In this document: one piece after another, positions 2,766 to 29,188 of the stretch
How positions within the stretch are numbered: position 1 is the stretch's first letter
How the letters are laid out: the number at the start of each line of letters is the position of its first letter
DNA from: Thermoproteota archaeon
Lineage (GTDB): Archaea; Korarchaeota; Korarchaeia; Korarchaeales; Korarchaeaceae
Assembly: GCA_027491415.1 (NCBI GenBank)
Contig: JAOZFH010000020.1
Span: 1-40,147, forward strand
Direction: 5' to 3'
Length of the DNA: 40,147 nt
Made by a program: the position numbers and the translations under genes
Notes under the pieces: model-generated
Told to the model about the DNA's origin: nothing
The model's input: the letters and a program-made list of their open reading frames with translations, nothing else
The model's database searches: none

Positions 2766-3341
2766 TCAGCCCCCTCCGGCCCGGAGGGGTATGGAGGCGA
2801 GCGTCTCGTATATCGGACCCTTGGGCGTTAGGGTGCTCTTCTTGAGCCTCATCTCCCTAACCTCGATCTCGCCGAAATCCGTCGAGAGCAGGGACGACAG
2901 CACCCTCCTGAGGGACTCCCTGTCCCTCAGCCACTTGACCCTCGCGATGGTCAGGTGCGGGTGCGGCTCCCTGTCCTCTTTCGGGAACCCGAGGCGCCTC
3001 AGCCTGGAGTCCACCCACATCATGAGCCTGACCAGCTCCTCCCTCCCCTCCTCGACGCCGACCCATATCACCCTGGGGCGCGACATGTTCGGGAAGGCTC
3101 CCACGCCGAAGAGCCTGGCCCTGAAGGGCGCGACGTCGGGCCCCTCCAGGGCCCTCGCGATCTCGGGCACCAGGGCCTCGTCCACGCTGCCCAGGAACTT
3201 CAGGGTGATGTGCAGGTTCTCCAGCTCCACGGACTTCACTCCGTTGTCGGTCGCCTCTATCCCCCTCTGGACCTCCCCGATCTTCGCGGCTATATGGGGG
3301 TCCTCGAGGTCGACCGCCACGAAGGTCCTGATCCTCCCCAT
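2766..3341 (-). CDS. thpR: RNA 2',3'-cyclic phosphodiesterase (2H family)
   Basis: RTFVAVD, two HxT motifs (HITLKFLG, HLTIAR), PRVIWVG, STLTPKGPIY. Confidence 0.95.
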   Translation of the reverse strand: MGRIRTFVAVDLEDPHIAAKIGEVQRGIEATDNGVKSVELENLHITLKFLGSVDEALVPEIARALEGPDVAPFRARLFGVGAFPNMSRPRVIWVGVEEGREELVRLMMWVDSRLRRLGFPKEDREPHPHLTIARVKWLRDRESLRRVLSSLLSTDFGEIEVREMRLKKSTLTPKGPIYETLASIPLRAGGG

Positions 3342-3453
3342 GGCGGACCACGTCTGCGAGGGGGCTAGCCGATATAAGGAGGGGTGTGGGGAGTCGCCGT
3401 GCGCGAGTCAGTTATATACTTCCTGAGCCCCCCAACGCGCCAGGAGGTAGCCC

Positions 3454-4410
3454 GTGAATACGAGAAGCGGATCCGGGGTCGCGGAGATAACCAGGCTGGA
3501 GCTGGAGGAGTTCTTACTCGGTGTGCTCTCCGACCAGGGCCCCTGGATCCTCGACCCCCACGAGCCGTCGACCTTCAGGTTCCAGAGAGAGCTGGAGCCG
3601 GGCGGGCTCATCGTCGGCCTCCTGCTGGCGGTCGGCAGCGGCGGAGCGGAGGGGGGCTCTGGCGGGAGGGTCGCCCCCTTGGTCTTCTACAGGGACGAGG
3701 ACGGCTGGTACGCCTCCGTGGGCTTCGAGGCGCTCCACGGCTGGGCCGGCTACTACCTGGCAAGGAGGGTGACCGACTCGCCCGAGCTCATGCTCTTCCC
3801 GAGCGAGGTCCTCCGGGACCTGTCGGAGAGGGCCAGGTGGCTCCCCACTACCGGCGCCAAGATCGAGGACCCGAGCGGCCTCACCCCTCGGCTGTCCGGG
3901 TTCGACGAGGCCGACTCGAGGTGGGTCCGGTCTGTCCTGAGGAGGTTGATCGAGCTCGGCGTGGTCAGGGACGAGGGCGTGAGGGTGGAGGCCAGCCTGT
4001 CCTTGGTGCTGGGCAGGTGGTCCGCGGAGGAGTTCAGGCGGGACTACGGGCTCTCGGCCGAGTTCACCGATCGCGTCGAGACGGCGGCCCGGAGGGAGGC
4101 CGGCCGCGCCGCGGCGTCCAGCATCTCGGAGTTCGTCCTCGTCGGCAGGCTAGACTTCGAGGCAGACCGGGGCGGGGACAGGGTGGGCGTGCGGGCCGAG
4201 GTCTCTCTGAGGGGAGTTGGCTTCGAGCTGAAGGGTGAGCTGCCCGGCCAGCCGAGGATGGTTGAGAGGAGGGTCACGCTGGGCACCTCCAGGCTCGACC
4301 TGCTGCCTTCCAGCGGAGAGGAGCTCGATGAGTGGCTGGGGGAGCTGAGGAAGGCCATCAGGCGCATCTTGGTCACCTCCCTAAAGAGCGACATAGCCCC
4401 GACCGCCTGA
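3454..4410 (+). CDS. Hypothetical protein (318 aa)
   Basis: Long ORF with host-like codon usage, GGAGGT RBS and upstream TTATATA box; no family recognised. Confidence 0.75.
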   Translation: MNTRSGSGVAEITRLELEEFLLGVLSDQGPWILDPHEPSTFRFQRELEPGGLIVGLLLAVGSGGAEGGSGGRVAPLVFYRDEDGWYASVGFEALHGWAGYYLARRVTDSPELMLFPSEVLRDLSERARWLPTTGAKIEDPSGLTPRLSGFDEADSRWVRSVLRRLIELGVVRDEGVRVEASLSLVLGRWSAEEFRRDYGLSAEFTDRVETAARREAGRAAASSISEFVLVGRLDFEADRGGDRVGVRAEVSLRGVGFELKGELPGQPRMVERRVTLGTSRLDLLPSSGEELDEWLGELRKAIRRILVTSLKSDIAPTA

Positions 4411-4658
4411 ATTCGGCCGAGGGGGCGGCCAAATCTCGACTCGTTTCGACCGGAGTGCTCCTCAACGTGTCCATCTCGGGGGGAGGGGGGAGGGGGGTCC
4501 CCCCCATGTCGATACGGTCTCGTTGGAAATCCATTTTGGCAAGAAAAGACAGCATTTGACCGCTCCATTCCGGATTTGGCCGAGCCAGGCGCTGTAACAT
4601 CAAGTTTTTATTGCCCTACTTCGGCGCTTCAACGTGCGGACGACGGAGGTGATGCCCC

Positions 4659-6035: not shown

Positions 6036-6638
6036 TTGAGGAGCGTGCGACGTCGCGTCCCCGGGGCCTACCGGTGCGTCATGCTGGTCGGCCTGCCGGG
6101 CTGCGGAAAGAGCGCGGTGGCCTCAATTTTGCGGGACGAGCTTGGATATGAGGTCATCGACATGAGCGACCTCGTAAAGGAGGAGGCGCGGAGAAGGGGC
6201 AGGGGGGTCGACAGGGAGAGCCTCAGGAAGACGGGCGAGGAGCTGAGGAGAGAGATGGGGAGGTCGGCCGTCGCCAAGCTCGTCCTGAGGAGGATAAGGG
6301 AACTAGAGGCGAAGGCGCCGAGGCCGGGATACGTCGTCTCCGGGATCAGGAACCAAGAGGAGGTGGACGAGATCAAGGCCGCCTTCGGCGACGAGGCCGT
6401 CTGCGTGGCCATACACACGCCAAAGAGGCTCCGGTACCTGAGGATGATCAGGAGGGGGAGGAGGGGGTTCGACGCCCCCACCCTGGAGGAGATGGAGAGG
6501 CAGGACAGGAGGGAGGTGGAGTTCTTCCGGATGGGCGAGCCCTTCATACTGGCCGACGAGCTGATAGTGAACTCGGGCTCCCTCGAGGAGCTGAGGTCGA
6601 GGGCCCTGGCAGTGGTCCTCAAGATACCAGGGGGCTGA
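6036..6638 (+). CDS. Archaeal dephospho-CoA kinase-like P-loop NTPase
   Basis: GLPGCGKS Walker A, MSDLVKEE, LR..G, GIRN..EV, R..RGR..D, AD..IVNSGSLEEL. True start may be GTG 6045. Confidence 0.82.
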   Translation: MRSVRRRVPGAYRCVMLVGLPGCGKSAVASILRDELGYEVIDMSDLVKEEARRRGRGVDRESLRKTGEELRREMGRSAVAKLVLRRIRELEAKAPRPGYVVSGIRNQEEVDEIKAAFGDEAVCVAIHTPKRLRYLRMIRRGRRGFDAPTLEEMERQDRREVEFFRMGEPFILADELIVNSGSLEELRSRALAVVLKIPGG

Positions 6639-6665
6639 CCCCCCGCCCGCCCCTCCCCCCTCCCC

Positions 6666-7757
6666 TCAGCTCACCGACCTCCACCTCAGGCCCAGCCGCT
6701 CGGCCTCCTCCCTCGCCCTCACGATCTCCTCCCTGGTGGGGCGGCGGGCTATCTCCGGGAACCTGTGCGCCCGGTACTCCGGCCTGTACTGGTCCATCAC
6801 GTTCACCAGCGCCCCCGGGGTGTTATCGGCTATCCACCTGAGTATCGGCACCGTGCAGCAGTCCACGTGCCCGGGCATGACGAGGTGGCGGATCACCATC
6901 TCCGGCCAGTGGTCGTACGCCATCCTGATGTTCCTCGTCACGACCTCCCTGTATCTGGGGGCGGAGCTGTACTTGAGGGCGTGTGGGTCTTCCCAGTACT
7001 TGAAGTCCGGCAGCCAGAGGTCTATTACTCCAAGGAGGAGCTCTGTTGCCTTCTCGCTCATGTACATGTTGGAGTTCCACACGACGGGCACGCTCACCCT
7101 GGTCAGCCTCAGCGCCTCGAGTATCCAGGGCAGGTTAGGCGTCGGCTCACCCCCGACGAGGTTGACGTTCCTCGCGCCCCTCTCCCTCAGGGCCTCGAAC
7201 AGGGACGCCAGGTAATGGGCGTCGACGGGCCTGCCGGAATCCGGCTCTTGGGAGATGTCCCAGTTCTGGCAGAAGACGCACCTGAAGTTACAGCCGGAGA
7301 AGAAGACCGTCCCCGAGGGGGTTATGGGGGCCTCCTCACCCATGTGGATGAAGGCGGAGGCCACCCTCGGCGCTCCCCCCACGCCGCAGACCCCGGCAAG
7401 GCCGGAGAGCCTGTCCACCCCGCAACGCCTCTCGCAGAGCGTGCAGGGGCTCGCCAGCTCCCTGGCCAGCCTGACCTTCAGGTCGAGGAGGCTGAACTCA
7501 GGTCTCTCCGGCAGGGGCGAGCCCGAGTCGACCTCCCTGATCAGGTCCCTGAGTTCTCCGACGAGGGCCCGGTGCTCCTCCCATGCGCGCTCCCCGGAGA
7601 GACCAGAAGGAGCCTTCAGCCTCTTGGCTAGGACGAACTGGGCCTCGACCTCACCCCTGGCGGCCTTAACGTACCGGGGGAGCGCCTCGAGTATCTCACG
7701 GTCGCGAAACGCCATCGCCGCGTCCGGGCGGAGGACCCACCAGCCGGCAACCTCCAA
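6666..7757 (-). CDS. pflX: PflX-like radical SAM protein (PFL-activase related)
   Basis: CTLCERRC, HMGEE, SGTVFFSGCNFRCVFCQNWDISQ, VIRHLVMPGH, NVMDQYRP. Confidence 0.9.
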   Translation of the reverse strand: MEVAGWWVLRPDAAMAFRDREILEALPRYVKAARGEVEAQFVLAKRLKAPSGLSGERAWEEHRALVGELRDLIREVDSGSPLPERPEFSLLDLKVRLARELASPCTLCERRCGVDRLSGLAGVCGVGGAPRVASAFIHMGEEAPITPSGTVFFSGCNFRCVFCQNWDISQEPDSGRPVDAHYLASLFEALRERGARNVNLVGGEPTPNLPWILEALRLTRVSVPVVWNSNMYMSEKATELLLGVIDLWLPDFKYWEDPHALKYSSAPRYREVVTRNIRMAYDHWPEMVIRHLVMPGHVDCCTVPILRWIADNTPGALVNVMDQYRPEYRAHRFPEIARRPTREEIVRAREEAERLGLRWRSVS

Positions 7758-9619: not shown

Positions 9620-10576
9620 TCAAATCGCCGGCACCTGCAGGTAACCTGCGGAGAGGACGCAGTACCTCAGGGCCAGCCCGCCGATCAGCACCATGAGGCC
9701 GAGGAGGAGAGCAGTGTAGAGCTTCGACCTCTCGACCTCGTGAGGTCTGCTTAGGTAGCCGAGGATGATCGCGGCCGGTATCAGGAGGCCAACGACCACC
9801 ACTCCCAGGATGAAGACCGGCGCCAGCTCTCCGCTCAGGAGGAGGCTCACGGCCGCAGAGGAGCCGGCGGGGCCGTAGGACTCCACCAGCAGGTAGGTGA
9901 ACAGCACGACGATCTCGAAGAGGATCACGTAGCCGTCTAGCAGCGTCATCCTGTGCAGCGCCTCAGCGACCTCCCCTCCCTCCCCGGTCAGCTTCCCCCT
10001 GGACAGCAGCCACGGGGCCAAGACCACGTCATACGCCGCCAGCCCAGTAGATGCCGCCGAGACCAAGAACAGCAGCGGCAGAGCTGGCGTGTGCCAGAAC
10101 GGCACGGCCTCAACGATCCCTATCAGGATCCCGGTGTATATGGCGACCCCGACGCCCGCGATAGCCGCGAGTCCGCCGAGGAGGTTCATGACCCCCTCTC
10201 CGCTCCACTTGGAGGTGAGCGGCTTCAGAAAGCCGAGCGGGCCCTCCGTCAGCAGGGGTGCCGAGAACAGTACGGCGAACACGGTGAACAGCGTCAGTAG
10301 AAGAGACCCGATTACTATCCAAGAATCGAAGTTCAGCTTGGGACTGGTCAGCACCAGGTAGAACTTCTCCGGGTGCTCGAGGTCGAGGATGAGGGCTAGG
10401 ATGCCAACTATCACCGAGACTATGCCCACCAGCGATCCGGCGGCGACGACCTTTCCGCTCCCCTTCCTCCTCCAGATGAGGTAGGACGCCACGAAGGCCA
10501 TGGACCCGAGTCCACCCAGGAACAGGTAGATTGCTATGAGGGGGCCCCAGAAGGTCTGCCTTATCAACTCATACAT
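9620..10576 (-). CDS. NrfD/PsrC-type membrane anchor subunit
   Basis: Start refined to ATG 10576 (MYELIRQTFWGPLIAIYLFLGG); DLEHPEKF, SWIVIG, YTGIL, PFWHTPALPLLFLVSA, LRYCVL. Confidence 0.92.
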   Translation of the reverse strand: MYELIRQTFWGPLIAIYLFLGGLGSMAFVASYLIWRRKGSGKVVAAGSLVGIVSVIVGILALILDLEHPEKFYLVLTSPKLNFDSWIVIGSLLLTLFTVFAVLFSAPLLTEGPLGFLKPLTSKWSGEGVMNLLGGLAAIAGVGVAIYTGILIGIVEAVPFWHTPALPLLFLVSAASTGLAAYDVVLAPWLLSRGKLTGEGGEVAEALHRMTLLDGYVILFEIVVLFTYLLVESYGPAGSSAAVSLLLSGELAPVFILGVVVVGLLIPAAIILGYLSRPHEVERSKLYTALLLGLMVLIGGLALRYCVLSAGYLQVPAI

Positions 10577-10581
10577 TCGGA

Positions 10582-11157
<576 letters not shown>

Positions 11158-11161
11158 CTCC

Positions 11162-13708
11162 TCATCCCACCCTGTAGACCCTCACCACCGCGTCTTGGTC
11201 GGCTGAGGAGCCAGACGGATCACTGTAGTTGGCGTAAACCGGCTTTATAGCCCCGTCGGCTGGTGCGAAGCCGTGGGACGACATGAACGGCGAGAGCTGG
11301 GCCAGCCCGTGCGGGACGAAGACGCAGCCCGGCCTGATCATGTTGGTCACGTGGACTCTGCCCTTCACCCTCGCCGGCGACGCCTCTACGAACTCCCCGT
11401 CCCCGGGGCTGTAGAAGCACCTGACGGCCTCGACGATCACCTCGTCTCCCTCCGTCACGCCCAACCTCGCGGCGGCCTCTGGGTGCAGCCAGATCCTGTT
11501 GGCGTGGTGCTTCTCGAGAACCCACCTAACGGCCTCGACGTTGACATTCTTGGCGTGCCTGTTCATGGCGAACACGCTGGAGACGAGGATGAACTCGCCG
11601 TCTCCCAGATCCCCGACGGTGAACTCGTCGCGCCAGGTCGGCAGCGGGTTGTATCCGTTCTCCAGGAGCATGATCGGGTAGATCTCGATCTTCCCGCTCG
11701 CTGTGCCGATCGAGGAGAGGTACTTGGGCTTCCACTCGACGCTGATCACCTTCTTTTCCCTGAGCTCGTCCAGCGTGATCTGAACGCCGTACTTCTTCGA
11801 GTAGGACTCTATCTGCCTCTGTAGCTTCTCATCCTTGGAGATCACCATGGACTCCGGCAGATACTCGGCCTTGAGGGTCTCCTCATCGATGCCGAGCTTG
11901 GCCCCTATCCTGAAAGCCAGCTCCTTGAATATGGAGCTGTTGCCCTTCGTGTCCGGGAACGGGTCGGAGACGCCCTCTATCCAGTTGATCCTGGCGGTTA
12001 TGTCGAAGGACTTGGAGAACCCTATGCCGCTTGAGCTGTAGAAGGTCCTGTCGGGCAGGACGTAGTCGGCCAGGGTGGCCATCTCGTCCGGGTAGATGTT
12101 GATGTTCACCACGATGCCCCCGTTCTCGACGACGTGCCTGATCGCCTCCTCGACGAGCCTGTAGTTCATGGTGGACGCGAGGCTCTGGGCGGCTATGATC
12201 AGCACCTTGACAGGGTAGGGGTCGTCGTGGAGGATGTTGTACCAAACCTTCTGGTAGAGGCCCTCCTTGGTGTATTTGTGGTAGACGGAGAACCTCTCGC
12301 CCTCGTCGATGATCTTGCCCCTGTACTCGTCGGGTATCGGGTACAGCGTGGCGAAGCTCTTCTTGGCCTTGGTGCTCACGACCTTGGCGATCGCCCCCTT
12401 CGCCGTCCTGTTGAAGACCCACCCTCCCCTGACCTCCACGTTTCCGGTCAGCGCCATCAGGATGGCGGCCGCCTTCAGGGCCTCGACTCCCTGACCTCTG
12501 TTCGGCCCGAGGCCGCCGTCCCTCTTCCAGTAGGGGATGCAGGCGGGCTTGGTGAACGCGAACTCCCTGGCTATCTCCACTATCTTCTCCGCGGGAACTC
12601 CGCTCTTCTCCGAGGCCCACTCTGGGGTGTACTGGCTCACGCCGTCCGCGATGAACTTCAGGGCGGTCTTGACGGCCCTGCCCTCGTGCTCGCCATTCCA
12701 CATCAGGGCCGGCCTCATCGCCTCGTCCGCTGGGACGACGGAGCCGGAGGCCTCGTCGTACACGAGGAACCTGCCCTCATCGTCCTTGACGGGTGCCCCG
12801 CTCTGGTCGACCAGGTGCGGGCCGTTGGTGTACTTCCTGACGAACTCCTCGTCGTAGAGCCCCTCGGAGAGGACGACGTTGAGCATCGCCATGAGGACGG
12901 CCGCATCGGTCCCGGGCTTGATGGGTATCCACTCGTCCGCCAGGTTGGCCGTAGCGGAGAGCCTGGGGTCGAACACGATCACCCTGGCCCCCCTCCTCCT
13001 TGCCTCAGCGAACTCCCACACGAACGGGTTCTTCGACTTGCCCGGCATGTCGTGGCCGAACGAGAGGATGAGCTTCGAGTGCTCGAAGTCGGCGATCGGG
13101 AGCCCGCCGCCGAACATGGGCTTTACGACGGCGTCCCGAGTCGAGTGGCAGGTGGTGTGGTGCTTGACCACGTTTGGCGTGCCGATGAGCGAGGCGAGGT
13201 CCTTACCCTTGCCGTGCCCGATGAACACCACCGAATGGGGCCCGAACTCTCGGATGGCCCAGGCTATCTTCTCGGCGATTTCGTCCAGGGCCTGGTCCCA
13301 GGAGACCTCGACCCAGCCGGGGTCCACGACCCCGACCACAGCGCCGTTCTCGTCGTACTTCAGGCCCCTCTCTTGATTCGTCCTTTTGAGGGGCTTCTTC
13401 AGCCTGTCCGGGTCGTAGAGTATCCTGAACGAGGTTCTCCCCTTAATGCACGGTCTGCCGTGGGAGACCCAGTCCCGAGGGTCGCCTTCGATTTTCACGA
13501 TCCTGCCGTCTTCGTTCAGGTGCGCCACCAGTACGCATCCGGCGCCGCAGACGCCGCACTTGATGTACCGAGTCCCTCCGGCCTGCGTGAGGTCCTCCCC
13601 GACCTCGGTGAGGGTCCTCAGGACGGCCCTGCCGGGGCCACTCCCGACCAGGCTGAGCGCCCCGGTCACTCCAGCGGCCTTCAGGAAGCCACGTCTTGTC
13701 ATTCTCAT
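11162..13708 (-). CDS. Tat-exported molybdopterin oxidoreductase catalytic subunit (Psr/Phs/Arr-like, DMSO reductase family)
   Basis: TRRGFLK Tat signal, CGVCGAGC...C Fe-S motif, DPDRLKKPLKR, PIKPGTDAA, C-terminal molydop-binding domain. Substrate cannot be determined by eye. Confidence 0.92.
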   Translation of the reverse strand: MRMTRRGFLKAAGVTGALSLVGSGPGRAVLRTLTEVGEDLTQAGGTRYIKCGVCGAGCVLVAHLNEDGRIVKIEGDPRDWVSHGRPCIKGRTSFRILYDPDRLKKPLKRTNQERGLKYDENGAVVGVVDPGWVEVSWDQALDEIAEKIAWAIREFGPHSVVFIGHGKGKDLASLIGTPNVVKHHTTCHSTRDAVVKPMFGGGLPIADFEHSKLILSFGHDMPGKSKNPFVWEFAEARRRGARVIVFDPRLSATANLADEWIPIKPGTDAAVLMAMLNVVLSEGLYDEEFVRKYTNGPHLVDQSGAPVKDDEGRFLVYDEASGSVVPADEAMRPALMWNGEHEGRAVKTALKFIADGVSQYTPEWASEKSGVPAEKIVEIAREFAFTKPACIPYWKRDGGLGPNRGQGVEALKAAAILMALTGNVEVRGGWVFNRTAKGAIAKVVSTKAKKSFATLYPIPDEYRGKIIDEGERFSVYHKYTKEGLYQKVWYNILHDDPYPVKVLIIAAQSLASTMNYRLVEEAIRHVVENGGIVVNINIYPDEMATLADYVLPDRTFYSSSGIGFSKSFDITARINWIEGVSDPFPDTKGNSSIFKELAFRIGAKLGIDEETLKAEYLPESMVISKDEKLQRQIESYSKKYGVQITLDELREKKVISVEWKPKYLSSIGTASGKIEIYPIMLLENGYNPLPTWRDEFTVGDLGDGEFILVSSVFAMNRHAKNVNVEAVRWVLEKHHANRIWLHPEAAARLGVTEGDEVIVEAVRCFYSPGDGEFVEASPARVKGRVHVTNMIRPGCVFVPHGLAQLSPFMSSHGFAPADGAIKPVYANYSDPSGSSADQDAVVRVYRVG

Positions 13709-23643: not shown

Positions 23644-24453
23644 TCACCCCTCCGCCGGCAGCGGCGGCGCGGATTTCGGGGCGGGCGCCCCCTCCCCGGC
23701 GGACCTCCTCGCCATCTCGATGAGCCTGGCCACCCTCTCCTCCACGCCGGGGTGCCAGGAGAACGCCCTCCTCAAGGATCCAAGCCTGCCCCTCCTGTCA
23801 GACGCGGCCAGGAGGAGGCTCTTCACCGTCCACCTTACCGCCCTGGGCGACTCCGGCAGCCCTCCCCTGTAGGCCATGGCCACCTTGACGAGGGCGCTCG
23901 CCAGGTCCAAGGGCCTCCCCGAGGCCATCGCCCCCTCCTCGTCCGCCCTGAACTCCAGCCACCTGCAGACCGCGGCCCCCAGGAGGGTCCCGAGGGGTAT
24001 GTTCAGCACGCCCTCAACGGCCGCGAACACCCTGAGGAGGGGGTGCCTTCCAGCCACGTGGGCCACCTCGTGGGCCAGAACGGCACGGATCTCGTCGGGC
24101 GTGAGGAGCCTCAGCATCCCCCCAGTCACCAGGACTAGGTACTTGCCCGGGCCCAGGAAGAGCGTCAGTGAGTTCGGCTCGTCATCCCTCAGGACGCCCA
24201 GCTCCACCTCCTGGCCCGCCCCTAGCGCCGACCTCAGGGACTCCAGCTCCCTGGAGAGGCCCTCGGGCGGGGGGTCCACGAAGTCCCTCAGCTGCCCCGA
24301 GGCCAGCCTCCCGCTCAGCACGCTCCAGGCCGCCCCAGCCGCGGCGAGCGACCCCAGGAACGCGGCTGCCCAGGCGTTCCTGAAGTATAGGGCGAGGCCG
24401 ATGGTGGCGGCCAGCGGCGAGAGGGCCGCGAGCGCCCCGAGGGCGCGGGTCAC
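23644..24453 (-). CDS. Membrane zinc metalloprotease, M48/M56 (HtpX/BlaR1-like)
   Basis: N-terminal TMs, AVLAHEVAHV (HExxH), EFRADE, LASALVK, HPGVEER; translationally coupled to the BlaI-like gene. Confidence 0.88.
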   Translation of the reverse strand: MTRALGALAALSPLAATIGLALYFRNAWAAAFLGSLAAAGAAWSVLSGRLASGQLRDFVDPPPEGLSRELESLRSALGAGQEVELGVLRDDEPNSLTLFLGPGKYLVLVTGGMLRLLTPDEIRAVLAHEVAHVAGRHPLLRVFAAVEGVLNIPLGTLLGAAVCRWLEFRADEEGAMASGRPLDLASALVKVAMAYRGGLPESPRAVRWTVKSLLLAASDRRGRLGSLRRAFSWHPGVEERVARLIEMARRSAGEGAPAPKSAPPLPAEG

Positions 24454-24860
24454 CCTCGACTGCCCTCCCCCACGGAGGACCTCTCCGCCTCTATCCTCCT
24501 GAGGATCTCTCTGAGCTCCTCTGGGCTGAGGTGAACGGCTCCCTCCTCTATTAGCTTGACCAGACCGGGCCTTCCGAGCGTGTTCACCACTCTCTTGATC
24601 GCGTCCCGGGCCACGCTCCTCTCGTACTCCTCCCTGCTGACCCTGGGCCTGTAGACGTAGTACACCCCTCCCCTGCCGGTCCTGAACTCCCGCTCCACGA
24701 GTCCCTTCCCGTGAAGTCTGGAGAGCACGGTGCCGACGGTCGTGAGCGAGAGAGGCCTCTCCCGGCTCAGCTCCTCGAAGACCTCCCTGACGGTCGCCGA
24801 CCCCCTCTTGAACAGGACGTCCATGACCCTGGGCTCGAGCGGCTCCCTCCTCCTCGGCAA
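24450..24860 (-). CDS. BlaI/MecI/CopY-family transcriptional repressor
   Basis: LEPRVMDVL...ATVREVFEEL...LSLTTVGTVLSRLHGKGLVER...YVYRPRVSREEY. Confidence 0.92.
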   Translation of the reverse strand: MPRRREPLEPRVMDVLFKRGSATVREVFEELSRERPLSLTTVGTVLSRLHGKGLVEREFRTGRGGVYYVYRPRVSREEYERSVARDAIKRVVNTLGRPGLVKLIEEGAVHLSPEELREILRRIEAERSSVGEGSRG

Positions 24861-25141: not shown

Positions 25142-26113
25142 ATGGACGGGGGCGTCCTGGTGGAGGGTCTCGTTAAGGTCTACGGGGAGATAGAGGCCGT
25201 GAGGGACGTCTCCTTCGACGTCGAACCGGGGGAGGTGATGGGGCTACTCGGCCCCAACGGGGCCGGCAAGACCACCACCATGAGGGTACTCGCCTCCGTC
25301 ATCAGGCCAACGGCCGGCAGGGCCATAGTGAACGGGGCGGACGTTGTCAGGGAGAGGGACAGGGTCAGGAGGTCGGTGGGCTATCTCCCCGAGAGGTCGG
25401 GCCTGCCCGCGAGGATGACCGGCGAGAGGTACCTGACGATGTTCGCGAGGCTGCACGGCCTGGCGGACCCGGAGGGCAGGGCCAGGGAGGTGGCCAGGGA
25501 GCTCGGCATCTCCGACAGGTTGGGCTCCAAGTTGGGATCCCTCTCGAAGGGTCTAAAGAGGAGGGTGGCCATAGCCAGGGCCCTCGTCCACGACCCGCCC
25601 GTCCTGCTCCTGGACGAGCCCACGTCCGGCCTGGACCCAATCAGCAGGGCCCAGGTGCTGGACCTCATAGCCCGGCAGGCTGCGGAGGGGAAGGCGGTCC
25701 TGGTCTCATCCCACGTCCTGTCGGAGATGGAGAGGATCTGCACGAGGGTATGCCTCATCTCCCGGGGCAGGGTGCTCGCGCGGGGACCCCTCGACGAGGT
25801 TAGGTCCTCGGCCGGGAGGCCGGTGCTCAGGCTCAGGGCGCGGATGGCGGGAGACCTAGTTCCGCTCCTGGAGGCCGCCCTGCGGGAAGCCAGGCTCGCG
25901 GTCAGGCTAAGGGACCTGAACGGGGTCGTCGAGGTGGATCCGATAGGGGGGCCCGGCGACCTGCGGTCGGCGGCCGCGGTCGTCCTGAGGCGCCTCTTGG
26001 ATGAGGGGGTGGTGCCGGACCTGTTCGAGATCCACAGGCCGACGCTGGAGGAGGCGTTCGTGGCGCTCGTGGGGGGAGCGGCCCGTGCGGGGGATCTGGG
26101 CGCTGCTGGGTGA
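25142..26113 (+). CDS. ABC-2 type exporter ATP-binding subunit 1
   Basis: GPNGAGKTT, LSKG, LLLDEPTSGLD, SSH. Confidence 0.95.
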   Translation: MDGGVLVEGLVKVYGEIEAVRDVSFDVEPGEVMGLLGPNGAGKTTTMRVLASVIRPTAGRAIVNGADVVRERDRVRRSVGYLPERSGLPARMTGERYLTMFARLHGLADPEGRAREVARELGISDRLGSKLGSLSKGLKRRVAIARALVHDPPVLLLDEPTSGLDPISRAQVLDLIARQAAEGKAVLVSSHVLSEMERICTRVCLISRGRVLARGPLDEVRSSAGRPVLRLRARMAGDLVPLLEAALREARLAVRLRDLNGVVEVDPIGGPGDLRSAAAVVLRRLLDEGVVPDLFEIHRPTLEEAFVALVGGAARAGDLGAAG

Positions 26114-26837
26114 GGAGCTGAGGCTCTCGGCACAGAGGGCCGTCTGGACCGCCGCGGCCCTCTCCTTCTTCGGGATGGCCGGGGTTGCCGCACTGAAGAT
26201 GCTGCCCGAGCTGCTACCGGAGGGGGCCGTCCTTCCCGTTGAGATGACGGCCTCCGAGGCCGTCAGGGGCTACGTGAGGACCCTCTACCAGATAGGGTCC
26301 CTGGTGTCGGTCATGCTCGGGATGGACGTAGTCTCGGGGGAGGTGGAGGGTGGGACCCTTGAGCCGCTCCTCTCCGCGCCCGTGTCGGTGGGGTCCGTCT
26401 TCCTCGCCAAGCTGGCGGCCAGGCTGGCCGCCCTGGCCGCCGGGGTCGCGGCCTCCGCCGCGGTCACGTGGTGCTACGCCGTCAGCGTCTTCGGCCCCAC
26501 GGACCTGGCGAGGACCCTGGCGGCGTCGGCCTACGCCCTCCTACCCATCTCCTCGGGGGCGCTCTGCGCGGCGGGCGCCAGCGCCCTCTGTCGATCCCAG
26601 TCCTCCAGCGCCCTCCTCGGCGCAGCCGCCACCCTGGGGCTATTCGCCGCCTCCAGGGTCGGCCCCCGCTGGTTGACCCCCTTCGGTCGGGCGGAGCTGG
26701 CCTACGAGATCCTGGACGGCGGGCTGGGCGGCCTGGCCCGGCCAATCGTCGAGACCTCGCTCGCCCTGCTGATCCTCCTCGCCGCCGACCTGGCGGCGCT
26801 CCTGGCGGCCGAGAGGATGGAGAGGTGGTGGGGATGA
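26085..26837 (+). CDS. ABC-2 type exporter permease 1
   Basis: Six TMs, VSGEVEGGTLEPLLSAPVS...FLAKL; start placed at GTG 26085. Confidence 0.88.
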   Translation: MRGIWALLGEELRLSAQRAVWTAAALSFFGMAGVAALKMLPELLPEGAVLPVEMTASEAVRGYVRTLYQIGSLVSVMLGMDVVSGEVEGGTLEPLLSAPVSVGSVFLAKLAARLAALAAGVAASAAVTWCYAVSVFGPTDLARTLAASAYALLPISSGALCAAGASALCRSQSSSALLGAAATLGLFAASRVGPRWLTPFGRAELAYEILDGGLGGLARPIVETSLALLILLAADLAALLAAERMERWWG

Positions 26838-27850
26838 TTGAGGTTAGCGGGCTCGTCAAGAGGTACGGCTCCGTCACGGCCATCGAGGGCGTGACCTTCT
26901 CGGTGGGGTCGGGGGAGGTGTTCGGCCTCCTCGGCCCCAACGGGGCCGGCAAGACCACCACCATGAGGATAATCTGCTGCGTGATACCCCCTGACGCGGG
27001 GTCCGTCGTCGTGGCGGGAGTAGACGCCCTTAGGGACCCGTCGAGGGCCAAGCAGTCCATCGGATACCTGCCCGAGGTCCCGTCGGTCTACAGCCGGCTT
27101 ACCGTCAGGGAGAACCTCGAGTTCTTCGCCAGGCTGTACGGGGTACCCGGCGGAGAGGCTGAGCCGAGGGTCTCTCGGCTCCTGAGGTTCTTCTCGCTGG
27201 AGGAAAGGGCGGATCAGCTGGCCTCGAGGCTGTCCAAGGGGCTGAGGCAGAGGCTGGCCATAGCCAGGGCCCTCGTCCACGACCCGCCCGTCCTGCTCCT
27301 GGACGAGCCCACGTCCGGCCTGGACCCGATAAGCGCCAGGGAGGTCAGGGACCTGGTGGTGAGGGTGGCCAGGGAGGAGGGGAAGACCGTCCTCCTCTCC
27401 ACTCACAACCTATTCGAGGCGGAGCAGGTCTGCGACAGGGTCGCGATAATAAGGAGGACGATCCTCGCCGTGGGGAGGCCGAGGGAACTCGCCGAGAGGG
27501 CCTCGATTAGGGTCCCGGTGAGGGTGGCCCTGGCCAACCCCTCGGAGGGGCTGGTGAGGGTGGCCCTCTCGGTCCAGGGGGTGACCTCCGCCAAGCTGGA
27601 GTCCGGAGAGCTCGTCGCGGAGCTTGAGGGGGATCCGGACTCGGTGGTGCCCGAGCTCAGCGCGGCCCTGGTCGCGGCGGGAGCCAAGATACTGTCGATC
27701 CGCCGAACCTCGTCGCTGGAGGAGGCGTTCATCTCGGTCGTCCGGGGCGGGCCGCGGGTGAGGTCCCGATCCGTCGGTGGTGGGGGGCGGGGCCCAGACG
27801 TGAACACGGGGACGGCCGAGATGTCTGGGGAGGGGGTGGTGCGGGCGTGA
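26834..27850 (+). CDS. ABC-2 type exporter ATP-binding subunit 2
   Basis: MIEVSGLVKRYG from ATG 26834; GPNGAGKTT, LSKG, LLLDEPTSGLD, STH. Confidence 0.95.
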   Translation: MIEVSGLVKRYGSVTAIEGVTFSVGSGEVFGLLGPNGAGKTTTMRIICCVIPPDAGSVVVAGVDALRDPSRAKQSIGYLPEVPSVYSRLTVRENLEFFARLYGVPGGEAEPRVSRLLRFFSLEERADQLASRLSKGLRQRLAIARALVHDPPVLLLDEPTSGLDPISAREVRDLVVRVAREEGKTVLLSTHNLFEAEQVCDRVAIIRRTILAVGRPRELAERASIRVPVRVALANPSEGLVRVALSVQGVTSAKLESGELVAELEGDPDSVVPELSAALVAAGAKILSIRRTSSLEEAFISVVRGGPRVRSRSVGGGGRGPDVNTGTAEMSGEGVVRA

Positions 27851-28665
27851 TCAGGTGGTCGAGGGTTCTGTGCGTCCTGACGAAGGACTGGAGGGAGTTC
27901 TCTAGGAGCGGTTGGCTGGTCGGGACCGCCCTGGCGCTGACGGTCTACTTCGGCGTCGTCCTGCCGGCCATAATCGTGTTCGGGGCCAGGATCTCTGGCG
28001 GCGCCGTCGTCCCCATATCGATACCCGTCAGGCTCGGGGACCTGCCCCTTCCCGCGGCTCCCGAGGGGCTGGACGAGGTGGCTAGGTCTGTCTACGCGGC
28101 CTTCTCTCTGATCGTCCCCCCGCTCTTCCTGGTGATCCCCCTGGCGGTGTCGACCGTGATGGCGGCGGACAGCTTCGCCGGCGAGAGGGAGAGGGGGACT
28201 ATAGAGGTCCTCTTGGCCGCCCCGCTCACCGAGAGGGAGCTCTTCCTGGCCAAGGCCCTCGCGTCCCTGACGCCGGGTGTGGCGGCCTCCTGGGGGGCCT
28301 TCGCGCTGATGGCCCTGGCGACCAACCTGATGTCGGCTGACATGTTCGGCGGGTGGTGGTTCCCGTCCGGCCCCGAGTGGTACGTGGTCGTCGCCCTCGT
28401 GTCCCCGCTCTACGCCTTCCTCGCAATATCCCTCATAGTGCTGGCCTCCTCCAGGGCTAGGAGCGCCAGGGAGGCTCAGCAGGCGTCCGCAATACTGGTG
28501 GCGCCCATCCTGGCGGCGGTGTTCGGCCAGGTCCTCGGGGGCTTCGCGATCGGCTTGGAGCACCTCTTGATCTCAGCAGCGGTCCTGGCGGGTCTGGACG
28601 CCGGGCTCGTCGCCCTCGCGCCGGGCAGGTTCTTCTCTGGGGTGAGGTACATGAGGGTCGATTAG
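27847..28665 (+). CDS. ABC-2 type exporter permease 2
   Basis: AADSFAGERERGTIEVLLAAPL..ELFLAK, REAQQ; six TMs. Confidence 0.92.
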   Translation: MIRWSRVLCVLTKDWREFSRSGWLVGTALALTVYFGVVLPAIIVFGARISGGAVVPISIPVRLGDLPLPAAPEGLDEVARSVYAAFSLIVPPLFLVIPLAVSTVMAADSFAGERERGTIEVLLAAPLTERELFLAKALASLTPGVAASWGAFALMALATNLMSADMFGGWWFPSGPEWYVVVALVSPLYAFLAISLIVLASSRARSAREAQQASAILVAPILAAVFGQVLGGFAIGLEHLLISAAVLAGLDAGLVALAPGRFFSGVRYMRVD

Positions 28666-28674
28666 CTTGTCCAC

Positions 28675-28721
28675 TTGTAGTAGCTACTACAAATTGTAAT
28701 AATGCTTATATTATGTCGTAG
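28675..28721. promoter_or_regulatory. AT-rich promoter/operator of the precursor peptide cassette
   Basis: Perfect palindrome TTGTAGTAGCTACTACAA (28675-28692), TACA-AAT-TGTA, and CTTATATTATGTCGTAG (28705-28721), which matches the reverse complement of 24872-24888 at 15/17. Confidence 0.65.
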
Positions 28722-28743
28722 GTTGACCTCCCCAGGTGGGAGC

Positions 28744-28875
28744 GTGGAGGTGTCCGGGTACACTCCCCCCGCCATGCTGAACCTGACCGGGACCGGGGAT
28801 CAGGGGGTCGCCGCGGCCGTGGTCGTCGTCATAGGAATCCTCCTCATCTGGCTGGCCATCGACCTGACCCCGTGA
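28744..28875 (+). CDS. RiPP precursor peptide A1 (43 aa)
   Basis: MEVSGYTPPAMLNLTGTGDQGVAAAVVVVIGILLIWLAIDLTP; AGGTGG RBS; an alternative in-frame TTG lies at 28723. Confidence 0.85.
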   Translation: MEVSGYTPPAMLNLTGTGDQGVAAAVVVVIGILLIWLAIDLTP

Positions 28876-28895
28876 GCCAAGCGAGGTGAGGGGAC

Positions 28896-29018
28896 TTGAG
28901 GACCTACACTCCACCAGCGCTGCTGAGCCTCTCTGGAGCGGTGGATCAGGGCGCGGTGGCGGCTGCCGTGGCCGTCATAGCGGCGGTGGCCCTGTGGCTC
29001 TGGCTCTGGGTCTACTGA
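28896..29018 (+). CDS. RiPP precursor peptide A2 (40 aa)
   Basis: MRTYTPPALLSLSGAVDQGAVAAAVAVIAAVALWLWLWVY; GAGGTGA RBS, TTG start. Confidence 0.88.
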   Translation: MRTYTPPALLSLSGAVDQGAVAAAVAVIAAVALWLWLWVY

Positions 29019-29044
29019 TGACGCGTACACCGGGGTGAAGTCCA

Positions 29045-29173
29045 GTGAGGGCCTACTCGCCTCCGACGATGCTGAACATAACGACCTCCGCGAACGTGGG
29101 CCTCGTGACGCCCACCGTGGCGGTGATCATCCAGGCGCTGGTGTGGGTCTACGTCTGGGTCTGGGCGACCTGA
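29045..29173 (+). CDS. RiPP precursor peptide A3 (42 aa)
   Basis: MRAYSPPTMLNITTSANVGLVTPTVAVIIQALVWVYVWVWAT; GGGGTGA RBS, GTG start. Confidence 0.88.
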   Translation: MRAYSPPTMLNITTSANVGLVTPTVAVIIQALVWVYVWVWAT

Positions 29174-29188
29174 GGGAGGCTCAAACGC

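Follow-up and report, generated by a model that had tools for sequence, protein, structure and literature searches.

Linear gramicidin is a bacterial product of a non-ribosomal synthetase, and polytheonamide, a proteusin, forms a beta-helical channel. Known darobactin- and triceptide-type cores are short and polar, and the leaders of lasso peptides carry a Y-x-x-P-x-L motif that is bound by a PqqD-like recognition element (RRE) of RiPPs (peptides that are synthesised ribosomally and modified post-translationally). Here we analyse five small paralogous open reading frames (ORFs), A1 to A5, which lie in tandem on a 40,147-nucleotide stretch of a korarchaeal genome (contig JAOZFH010000020.1 of assembly GCA_027491415.1; the whole stretch is called the window). 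They are part of one co-directional gene row of exporters, the five ORFs, a radical S-adenosylmethionine (rSAM) enzyme with a SPASM domain (rSAM1), a GNAT acetyltransferase, a second rSAM enzyme (rSAM2), a PqqD-type protein and a TldD/TldE pair. Judged from sequence, the five ORFs very probably encode precursors, and the modified, membrane-active peptides made from them would form a new family. More specifically, and tentatively, we read them as precursors in an undescribed radical-SAM RiPP family that would make uncharged, extremely hydrophobic, membrane-inserting peptides by the composite route given below, a reading that we consider possible rather than probable. By analogy the cluster would work most like the proteusin systems, yet it departs from them in leader type and scaffold, two features that were tested.

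Proteusin rSAM epimerases are described as having no auxiliary cluster and as quenching the C-alpha radical with one conserved Cys (PMC13012085, PMC8326336); PoyD homologues share a single strictly conserved extra Cys, and PoyD itself works from the C- to the N-terminus, epimerising strictly in a 1,3 pattern (PMC8326336). The epipeptide enzyme EpeE retains a twitch-domain auxiliary cluster (PMC13012085).

The five precursor peptides

28744..28875, + strand: precursor A1, with a Y-T-P-P leader, a hydrophobic core and a single Trp (ORF translation, alignment)
28896..29018, + strand: precursor A2, whose core ends W-L-W-L-W-V-Y (ORF translation)
29045..29173, + strand: precursor A3, whose core has W/Y/W/W at each second position (ORF translation)
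29189..29332, + strand: precursor A4 (ORF translation, alignment)
29356..29485, + strand: precursor A5, leader in one frame and core in another, with the change near 29396-29420 (frame translations)

The initial annotation had singled out the span 28896-29173, which covers A2, a spacer and A3, the second and third members of the row. A2 starts with TTG and encodes 40 residues, the C-terminal 21 of which are the core quoted there; A3 starts with GTG, encodes 42 residues and ends in the other quoted string. The two cores are real, and the analysis supports their reading as RiPP precursors; their operon also encodes two rSAM enzymes, a GNAT, TldD/TldE and exporters.

All five peptides start with one or two basic residues followed by a leader of about 18 residues with the motif Y-x-P-P-x-[LM]-[LM], a short Gly/Asp/Ser-rich linker and a charge-free stretch of 20-25 residues, and a purine-rich, Shine-Dalgarno-like stretch lies upstream of each ORF. 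The cores of A2 and A3 contain zero charged residues, and no core contains Cys, which excludes thioether bridges. In A5, the leader V-E-R-K-Y-V-P-P is read in one frame and the core with W-L-W in the next (ORF 29396..29485), the distance from Tyr to Trp being 73 nt, which is out of step with whole codons by one base. An invariant Trp stands about 30 residues C-terminal of the leader Tyr, and the Ile at -6 from this Trp is invariant in six aligned precursors. At +6 an aromatic residue is seen (Y in A2, W in A3 and A4, F in A5); such i/i+6 spacing of Ile, Trp and aromatic could mark fixed modification sites or, in a helix with about 6.3 residues per turn, place the side chains in a stack. W-x-W is present in A2, A3 and A5 and in precursors of two related clusters described below (L081-84 and L195).

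The host is an archaeon: a 16S fragment on contig C52 of its genome scores 690 bits with the archaeal SSU model, the winner of the clan competition. In this genome, a 1.78-Mb draft of 63 contigs, the leader motif combined with a hydrophobic tail occurs in only four ORFs, all on this contig (A5 was excluded from the scan by the length filter). The pattern W-[aliphatic]-W-[aliphatic]-[WYF] occurs 10 times in the 3,566,354 residues of the six-frame genome translation, and two of these occurrences overlap in A2. A peptide profile found nine proteins at E ≤ 10 among 1038 candidates, namely four of the window's own and five from other assemblies (E 1e-12 to 0.03); two of the hits elsewhere, P0127 and P0128, are orthologue-like to A1. 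On these sequence comparisons the five precursor ORFs are not chance ORFs. A1, A3, A4 and the L081 precursor match no NCBIfam family, and A2 gave only a chance-level lectin match. A predicted complex of the stand-alone PqqD protein with A2 (score 0.17, mark 0.32) carries no weight either way.

The cores of A2 and A3 have a two-residue period. With the invariant Trp set to zero, the positions of Trp parity in A2 are A,A,A,A,I,A,A,W,W,W,Y, and those of opposite parity are G,V,A,V,V,A,V,L,L,L,V. In A3, the Trp parity reads L,T,T,A,I,Q,L,W,Y,W,W,T, the opposite one G,V,P,V,V,I,A,V,V,V,V,A. A parity statistic that is blind to residue type gave, against shuffles, p=0.002 for A2, p=0.019 for A3 and p=0.005 for the sum over seven cores. 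In the seven non-redundant cores, 11/11 further aromatics lie on the Trp parity and 12/12 Gly on the opposite parity (permutation p about 2e-4 each), and both were reached together in 0 of 50,000 shuffles. Because Gly at -15/-5 and W at +2/+4 are partly inherited, these permutation p-values overstate independence, and we estimate the truly independent parity evidence to be, at best, at the 1e-3 to 1e-4 level. Among 104 charge-free hydrophobic 23-mers taken as a control from long ORFs of the host genome, one reaches the parity statistic of A2 and none its lag-2 identity of 0.43 (control mean 0.13, maximum 0.38). Outside the window, the precursor of an Oscillospiraceae cluster (L002) has a lag-2 identity of 0.40 (p=1e-4), and that of L195 is weakly periodic (p=0.03).

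A period of this kind would fit a beta-strand, a D/L-alternating beta-helix or an enzyme acting on alternate residues, and it is unlike alpha-helical membrane spans. Aromatic cross-links from i to i+2 fit it equally, but leave the opposite parity of Gly unexplained.

The two radical-SAM enzymes and described systems

31475..32560, + strand: rSAM2, a radical-SAM enzyme of SPASM-like fold without auxiliary-cluster cysteines and with Cys98 (Pfam, alignment, AlphaFold2 model)
29505..30581, + strand: N-terminal part of rSAM1, a PqqD-type RRE and radical-SAM core (Pfam PqqD 2e-09, Radical_SAM 1.1e-30)
30611..30934, + strand: C-terminal SPASM domain of rSAM1, in another frame (Cys-rich SPASM motif, TIGR04085)

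By sequence and fold, rSAM2 belongs with the SPASM/twitch peptide maturases. Its AlphaFold2 model (predicted local distance difference test, pLDDT, 84) has SkfB, SuiB, BlsE, PqqE, CteB and anSME as top Foldseek matches, and SkfB and PqqE are the best phmmer matches in the PDB; the ESM Atlas returned generic radical-SAM clusters only. The nine close relatives among 416 matches (34-47% identity) are all devoid of a SPASM Pfam domain (0/9), and the auxiliary-cluster region holds one Cys in rSAM2 of the window; in 150 of 157 family members it has no more than three.

A different cysteine is conserved. Cys98 lies three residues before the G-G-E motif in strand beta-2 (residues 96-100 of the model) and is found in nine of the 120 best word-search matches, all nine inside a SPASM-less clade of 10 members. 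It is present in 0 of the remaining 110, and at least four C-terminal Cys are kept in 106 of the 111 matches without Cys98; in the profile search, 125 of 157 family members have it. The extra conserved Cys together with the lost auxiliary cluster is most simply read as a putative hydrogen-donor arrangement. Compared with PoyD by published description, rSAM2 thus appears with the proteusin-epimerase cofactor make-up, no auxiliary Fe-S cluster and one conserved non-cluster Cys, on a different scaffold, a likeness of make-up that does not prove a role.

rSAM1 is a SPASM enzyme whose reading frame is broken in the assembly. Its N-terminal part is 45% identical to an intact orthologue (L081:7066-8148) and its SPASM part 49% identical to residues 253-350 of that orthologue; the SPASM part has the full cysteine set and scores 38.5 bits against TIGR04085 of NCBIfam, over the cut-off of 27. 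The radical-SAM frame stops at TGA 30579-30581, and SPASM continues in a different frame from about 30590. A G-run adjoins the frame change (30540-30620), and the orthologues in L081 and L195 are single ORFs; the gene is either a true pseudogene or carries an indel made in assembly. The SPASM frame stops (TGA 30932-30934) 2-8 nt before the candidate starts of the GNAT gene (GTG 30936, ATG 30942), which suggests translational coupling and that rSAM1 originally ended in the SPASM frame. Residues such as those of the Trp tail are oxidatively cross-linked by known SPASM enzymes.

Set beside the described systems, the cluster shares with the proteusins (polytheonamides, landornamide) ribosomal cores rich in Val/Ala/Ile/Gly, a cluster-less rSAM enzyme with one extra Cys and, in the bacterial relatives of the window's cluster, accompanying B12-rSAM enzymes; the reported 1,3 modification pattern (PMC8326336, PMC13012085) matches the two-residue period of A2 and A3. 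Proteusin leaders, however, are long and nitrile-hydratase-like (or Nif11-like), whereas the leaders here have about 18 residues with Y-x-P-P and PqqD-type RREs as their putative binders; the fold of rSAM2 is a degenerate SPASM type near SkfB, SuiB and PqqE; and the window's cluster adds a SPASM enzyme, TldD/TldE and a GNAT. The epipeptides (YydF/EpeX with YydG/EpeE) are likewise small, hydrophobic, membrane-perturbing peptides in which an rSAM enzyme epimerises Val/Ile with a Cys as hydrogen donor, but EpeE has a twitch auxiliary cluster (PMC13012085), and rSAM2 lacks the cysteines for one. For C223 variants of EpeE, lost epimerisation together with cleavage of the peptide or build-up of radical has been reported. 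With linear gramicidin A, the precursors share an uncharged aliphatic N-half, an alternating Trp/aliphatic C-tail (W-L-W-L-W occurs also in A2), the parity of Trp versus Val/Leu/Gly and, possibly, N-capping. The differences are its length of 15 residues against 20-25 here and, in the window, a ribosomal origin and a SPASM enzyme. Darobactin/dynobactin and triceptide systems resemble the cluster in a PqqD/RRE-dependent rSAM-SPASM enzyme, represented by the frame-broken rSAM1, and in aromatics at i and i+2 (the W-x-W motif). Known triceptide-type motifs are unlike the Trp or aliphatic partner residue of W-x-W. Moreover, the cores here are long and lipophilic, the conserved enzyme is the second, cluster-less rSAM, and curated triceptide-type models stayed under their cut-offs (WgkB 99.6 bits versus 650; DynA, with the SPASM part, 39.8 versus 450).

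Lasso peptides have the same kind of leader motif and RRE (PqqD domains by Pfam). A lasso system was rejected, as Pfam found no Asn-synthetase-like cyclase or transglutaminase-like leader protease among the genes at 25142-36246. A mycofactocin-like system was rejected as well: the best NCBIfam match of rSAM2, the mycofactocin maturase, reached 135.9 bits versus a cut-off of 265, and only A2 ends in Val-Tyr, the other four C-termini being different. The cluster is not an epipeptide, lasso, mycofactocin or sactipeptide system. A preprint (bioRxiv 10.64898/2026.07.27.741052) deals with subtilosin-like clusters, a different system.

Related clusters and the proposed route

A profile of the rSAM2 clade searched against 1.84 billion representatives found 3852 proteins at E ≤ 1e-30. 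The best 150 of these match over nearly their full length with 212-564 bits, which leaves many unexplored clusters open to mining. Of ten long representatives, four are fusions of rSAM2-like with SPASM-bearing rSAM domains and two are fusions with PqqD.

Several related clusters share components with that of the window. The sediment-metagenome contigs L081-L084 carry two rSAM2 copies (46% identity) with PqqD between them, a PqqD, an intact rSAM-SPASM orthologue of rSAM1 and a single precursor, whose leader has K-Y-S-A-P-G-M-L and whose core ends W-A-W-V-W. The peptide P0129, from a metagenome-assembled genome (MAG) with the source name Corynebacterium sp., has a leader motif identical to that of A1 and a core ending V-W-A-W-V-A. 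L195, from Clostridia, repeats the window's architecture with a one-frame PqqD-rSAM-SPASM enzyme of 492 residues, rSAM2, PqqD, a B12-rSAM and an ABC pair; its precursor has an A-Y-K-S-P-T-I-V leader and a W...W-G-W tail, and in place of TldD/TldE an M16-type peptidase stands beside a protein of 404 residues without Pfam match. L001, a Thermococcus MAG, has two precursors with E-Y-[VI]-P-P leaders, rSAM2, PqqD and ABC-2 transporters, and L002, an Oscillospiraceae MAG, has rSAM2, a PqqD-containing protein, a B12-type rSAM, an ABC exporter and a precursor in whose tail Val alternates with Gly/Gln/Glu over a dozen residues. Among the matches listed in a scan of genome contigs the identity was at most 31%, and L001 and L002 were recognised as family members by hidden Markov model scoring. 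In the Thermococci, six further genomes have an rSAM2-family match (7 of the 133 searched in the class); 399 scored genomes of Clostridia yielded two matches, one of them L195, and a third match is L002's own genome. B12-binding radical-SAM enzymes accompany rSAM2 in three bacterial clusters. No precursor was found in L194 (a 16-kb locus) or in the short-flanked L187-L189 and L183.

L195 10422-11111 (-), L195 5088-7151 (-), L194 10513-11874 and L002 11242-12624: B12-rSAM and ICMT/PEMT genes of the bacterial relatives

The ICMT/PEMT-family membrane methyltransferase of L195 could, by its family, cap a C-terminal carboxylate. Upstream of two tandem rSAM2 copies in L194, a SPASM-only ORF of 151 residues (6592-7047) looks like a remnant or split SPASM partner. 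The L081 cluster is flanked by a transposase-like gene and, on the other strand, a PqqD and NTP_transf_5 pair (11543-12469 and 2784-4658, - strand), which may mean that the cluster is mobile and that a second RRE-dependent system lies close by.

As judged by what independent clusters share, the conserved module combines rSAM2 and PqqD with a hydrophobic precursor whose leader is of the Y-x-x-P type, and the SPASM enzyme, GNAT, peptidases and B12 enzymes are accessories. The SPASM partner is present in the window, L081-84 and L195, and all three cluster types have W-x-W precursors; neither L001 nor L002 has one within ±8 kb, and W-x-W is lacking from all three of their precursors. Small as these numbers are, the simplest reading of this co-occurrence is that rSAM1 works on the Trp tail.

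In the route that we infer, step by step, from these sequence-level facts, the PqqD-type domains would bind the Y-x-P-P-x-[LM]-[LM] leader. rSAM2, the family-defining enzyme, would abstract C-alpha hydrogens in the aliphatic core and Cys98 would return hydrogen on the other face, leaving D-residues at alternate positions on the Val/Leu/Gly parity. rSAM1 would introduce oxidative cross-links in the W-x-W tail, TldD/TldE would degrade the leader down to the first modified residue, the GNAT would acetylate the new N-terminus, and the two ABC-2 systems may serve export of the product and/or protection of the producer (immunity). TldD/TldE pairs are known as leader peptidases, and GNATs N-acetylate in other RiPPs.

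Several observations weigh against this composite route. rSAM2 reaches no NCBIfam cut-off, and EpeE is found neither among the phmmer PDB matches of the two rSAM enzymes at E ≤ 1e-3 (8 and 14 distinct sequences) nor in the Foldseek list of the rSAM2 model down to rank 50. The parity tests are post hoc, with p-values that ignore the homology of the cores; A1, A4, A5 and the L081 and P0129 cores are individually non-significant (p 0.14-0.93), and lag-2 periodicity is absent in the four Thermococci precursors (p=0.06-0.78), that is, in 4 of 6 further family precursors. A hydrophobic stretch of about 20-25 residues is also the length of an ordinary alpha-helical membrane span. In the present assembly, two frame changes less than 1.3 kb apart break rSAM1 and A5, either because the cluster is perhaps partly inactive or because of possible indel errors in the assembly. 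The other 42 genomes of the host phylum contain no orthologue of the cluster: the best match there scores 121 bits over the rSAM core only, versus 826 for rSAM2 against itself, and equals a paralogue elsewhere in the host genome. GNAT and TldD/TldE were found only in the window's version of the cluster. Lastly, the SPASM enzyme and the W-x-W motifs suggest darobactin/triceptide-like cross-links.

This last point leads to the view that both rSAM enzymes make side-chain links (Trp three-residue cyclophanes or ether/C-C bridges) with no epimerisation, the two-residue spacing of the aromatics reflecting i-to-i+2 links. We regard it as rather unlikely, although rSAM1 is a canonical PqqD-rSAM-SPASM enzyme whose SPASM part has sub-threshold matches to WgkB (47.9 bits) and DynA (39.8 bits), the SPASM partner occurs with W-x-W in 3/3 cluster types and is missing along with it in 2/2, the first Trp and the Ile at -6 are invariant in the six-sequence alignment, as for fixed modification sites, and the structural neighbours SkfB, SuiB and CteB of rSAM2 are cross-linking enzymes. 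Auxiliary clusters are usual in oxidative cross-linkers, whereas rSAM2 lacks the cysteines for one; L001 and L002 have rSAM2 alone and cores without W-x-W, the matches to named cross-linker families lie far under their cut-offs, and the opposite parity of Gly would go unexplained. An unlikely alternative is that rSAM2 performs another, undescribed redox-neutral or reductive chemistry on aliphatic side chains or backbone, and that membrane activity is unrelated to D-residues and arises, for example, from beta-sheet or helical oligomers of L-peptides. Consistent with this are the curated cut-offs that rSAM2 does not reach, the lack of a description in the literature searched, the diverse cores of the wider family and the B12-type enzymes of the three bacterial clusters as further side-chain chemistry within the family; yet it names no mechanism, and the extra Cys with the lost auxiliary cluster is read most simply as a hydrogen donor.

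The initial annotation had proposed one rSAM as a possible processive epimerase, alternating D-residues and a ribosomal gramicidin mimic. Of the epimerase, what stands is that rSAM2 is without auxiliary-cluster cysteines and has the clade Cys; a relation to EpeE was not detectable in our searches, and no curated cut-off was reached. The alternating pattern is borne out by the two-residue period of A2 and A3, which transmembrane-like segments of the host's own genome lack, but is not general in the family. As for gramicidin, the W-L-W-L-W and the Trp parity agree with the proposal, whereas the SPASM enzyme with W-x-W favours cross-links and the core length fits an alpha-helical span too; a gramicidin-like beta-helix is plausible as a minority possibility, and cross-links of -2 Da at the Trp tail are at least as likely. 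In its strict form, with alternate epimerisation of the whole core, no cross-links and an acetyl-capped beta-helix as cation channel, the gramicidin reading seems to us very unlikely. It draws on the pentapeptide that A2 has in common with the gramicidin A sequence cited by the initial annotation, on the split of A2 into a Trp side and a Val/Leu/Gly side, on the charge-free cores of A2 and A3, on the cofactor make-up of rSAM2 and on the GNAT and leader peptidases of the cluster. However, it leaves the SPASM enzyme without a role, and the sister precursors A1, A4 and A5 are weakly periodic. The A3 and A4 cores contain Pro, Gln and Thr, cores of 20-25 residues suit an ordinary alpha-helical span, and neither phmmer against the PDB nor Foldseek found homology to known epimerases. 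Still more improbable, in our estimate, is a decaying or silent cluster whose ORFs are unmodified small membrane proteins or pseudogenes. The two frame changes and the missing orthologue in the other 42 phylum genomes would fit decay, but four precursors, rSAM2, PqqD, GNAT, TldD/TldE and the four ABC genes have unbroken frames whose starts are coupled or overlap, and indel errors are possible in a 63-contig draft, the frame change of rSAM1 lying beside a G-run.

If rSAM2 is an epimerase, it would represent a third, independently evolved lineage of radical-SAM peptide epimerases, recognisable by sequence from a SPASM fold without cluster cysteines plus Cys98. In that case archaea would also be producers of membrane peptides that are beta-helical or contain D-residues in some other form, and gramicidin-like channels could be reached by a route that is genetically encodable. 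An archaeal ribosomal counterpart of gramicidin, with an epimerase that arose from a SPASM scaffold independently of PoyD/EpeE, through loss of the auxiliary clusters and gain of a hydrogen-donor Cys, and that inverts each second residue of A2 and A3 to give acetyl-capped, cation-conducting beta-helices, is quite unlikely in our judgement; were it real, the rSAM2 family would mark a widespread and so far unrecognised D/L-alternating peptide class in Clostridia, Actinomycetota and Thermococci. Whatever the chemistry, the module of Y-x-P-P leader, cluster-less rSAM and PqqD is an undescribed RiPP family with unusually lipophilic cores and five natural substrate variants in one operon; the literature searched describes neither the Y-x-P-P leader type, nor an rSAM of SPASM fold that lacks the clusters and has precursors like these, nor a gramicidin made ribosomally.

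Gene row and flanking features

25142..26113, + strand: ABC transporter ATPase 1, DrrA-like (Pfam ABC_tran 2.3e-32)
26001..26837, + strand: ABC-2 permease 1, true start probably near 26110 (Pfam ABC2_membrane_2 3.5e-10)
26834..27850, + strand: ABC transporter ATPase 2, listed as ORF 26468-27850 (Pfam ABC_tran 2e-31, 4.1e-31)
27847..28665, + strand: ABC-2 permease 2 (Pfam ABC2_membrane_2 5.8e-14)
30942..31478, + strand: GNAT acetyltransferase, start ATG 30942 or GTG 30936 (Pfam Acetyltransf_1 7.6e-14)
32538..32882, + strand: stand-alone PqqD-type RRE (Pfam PqqD 2.7e-11)
32879..34267, + strand: TldD-like metalloprotease, HELLQH (H-E-x-x-x-H) at residue 247 (Pfam PmbA_TldD_3rd 2e-34)
34467..35606, + strand: TldE/PmbA-like partner without H-E-x-x-x-H (Pfam PmbA_TldD_3rd 1.1e-11)

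ATPase 1 scored 242 bits against the NCBIfam drrA model, under its cut-off of 312. TldD and TldE are two PmbA_TldD paralogues, one with H-E-x-x-x-H, as expected of such a pair; neither reached the NCBIfam equivalog cut-offs (55 bits versus 513).

The region immediately upstream of the ABC genes (23644-24860, - strand) holds a repressor of the BlaI/MecI type (Penicillinase_R, 2.3e-21) and a BlaR1-like M48 peptidase, a possible sensor/regulator of the cluster. Downstream lies a CRISPR-like array (36438-37138) with about 10 copies of a repeat of about 37 nt at 74-77-nt spacing, where GC content dips to 0.59-0.62, and beside it a gene (37580-38530, - strand) that matches TIGR02619, a putative CRISPR-associated protein. 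Further away, at 9620-13708 (- strand), a molybdopterin oxidoreductase (PhsA/DmsA-like, 848 residues) and an NrfD-type membrane subunit suggest, by family, thiosulfate/polysulfide-type respiration in the host.

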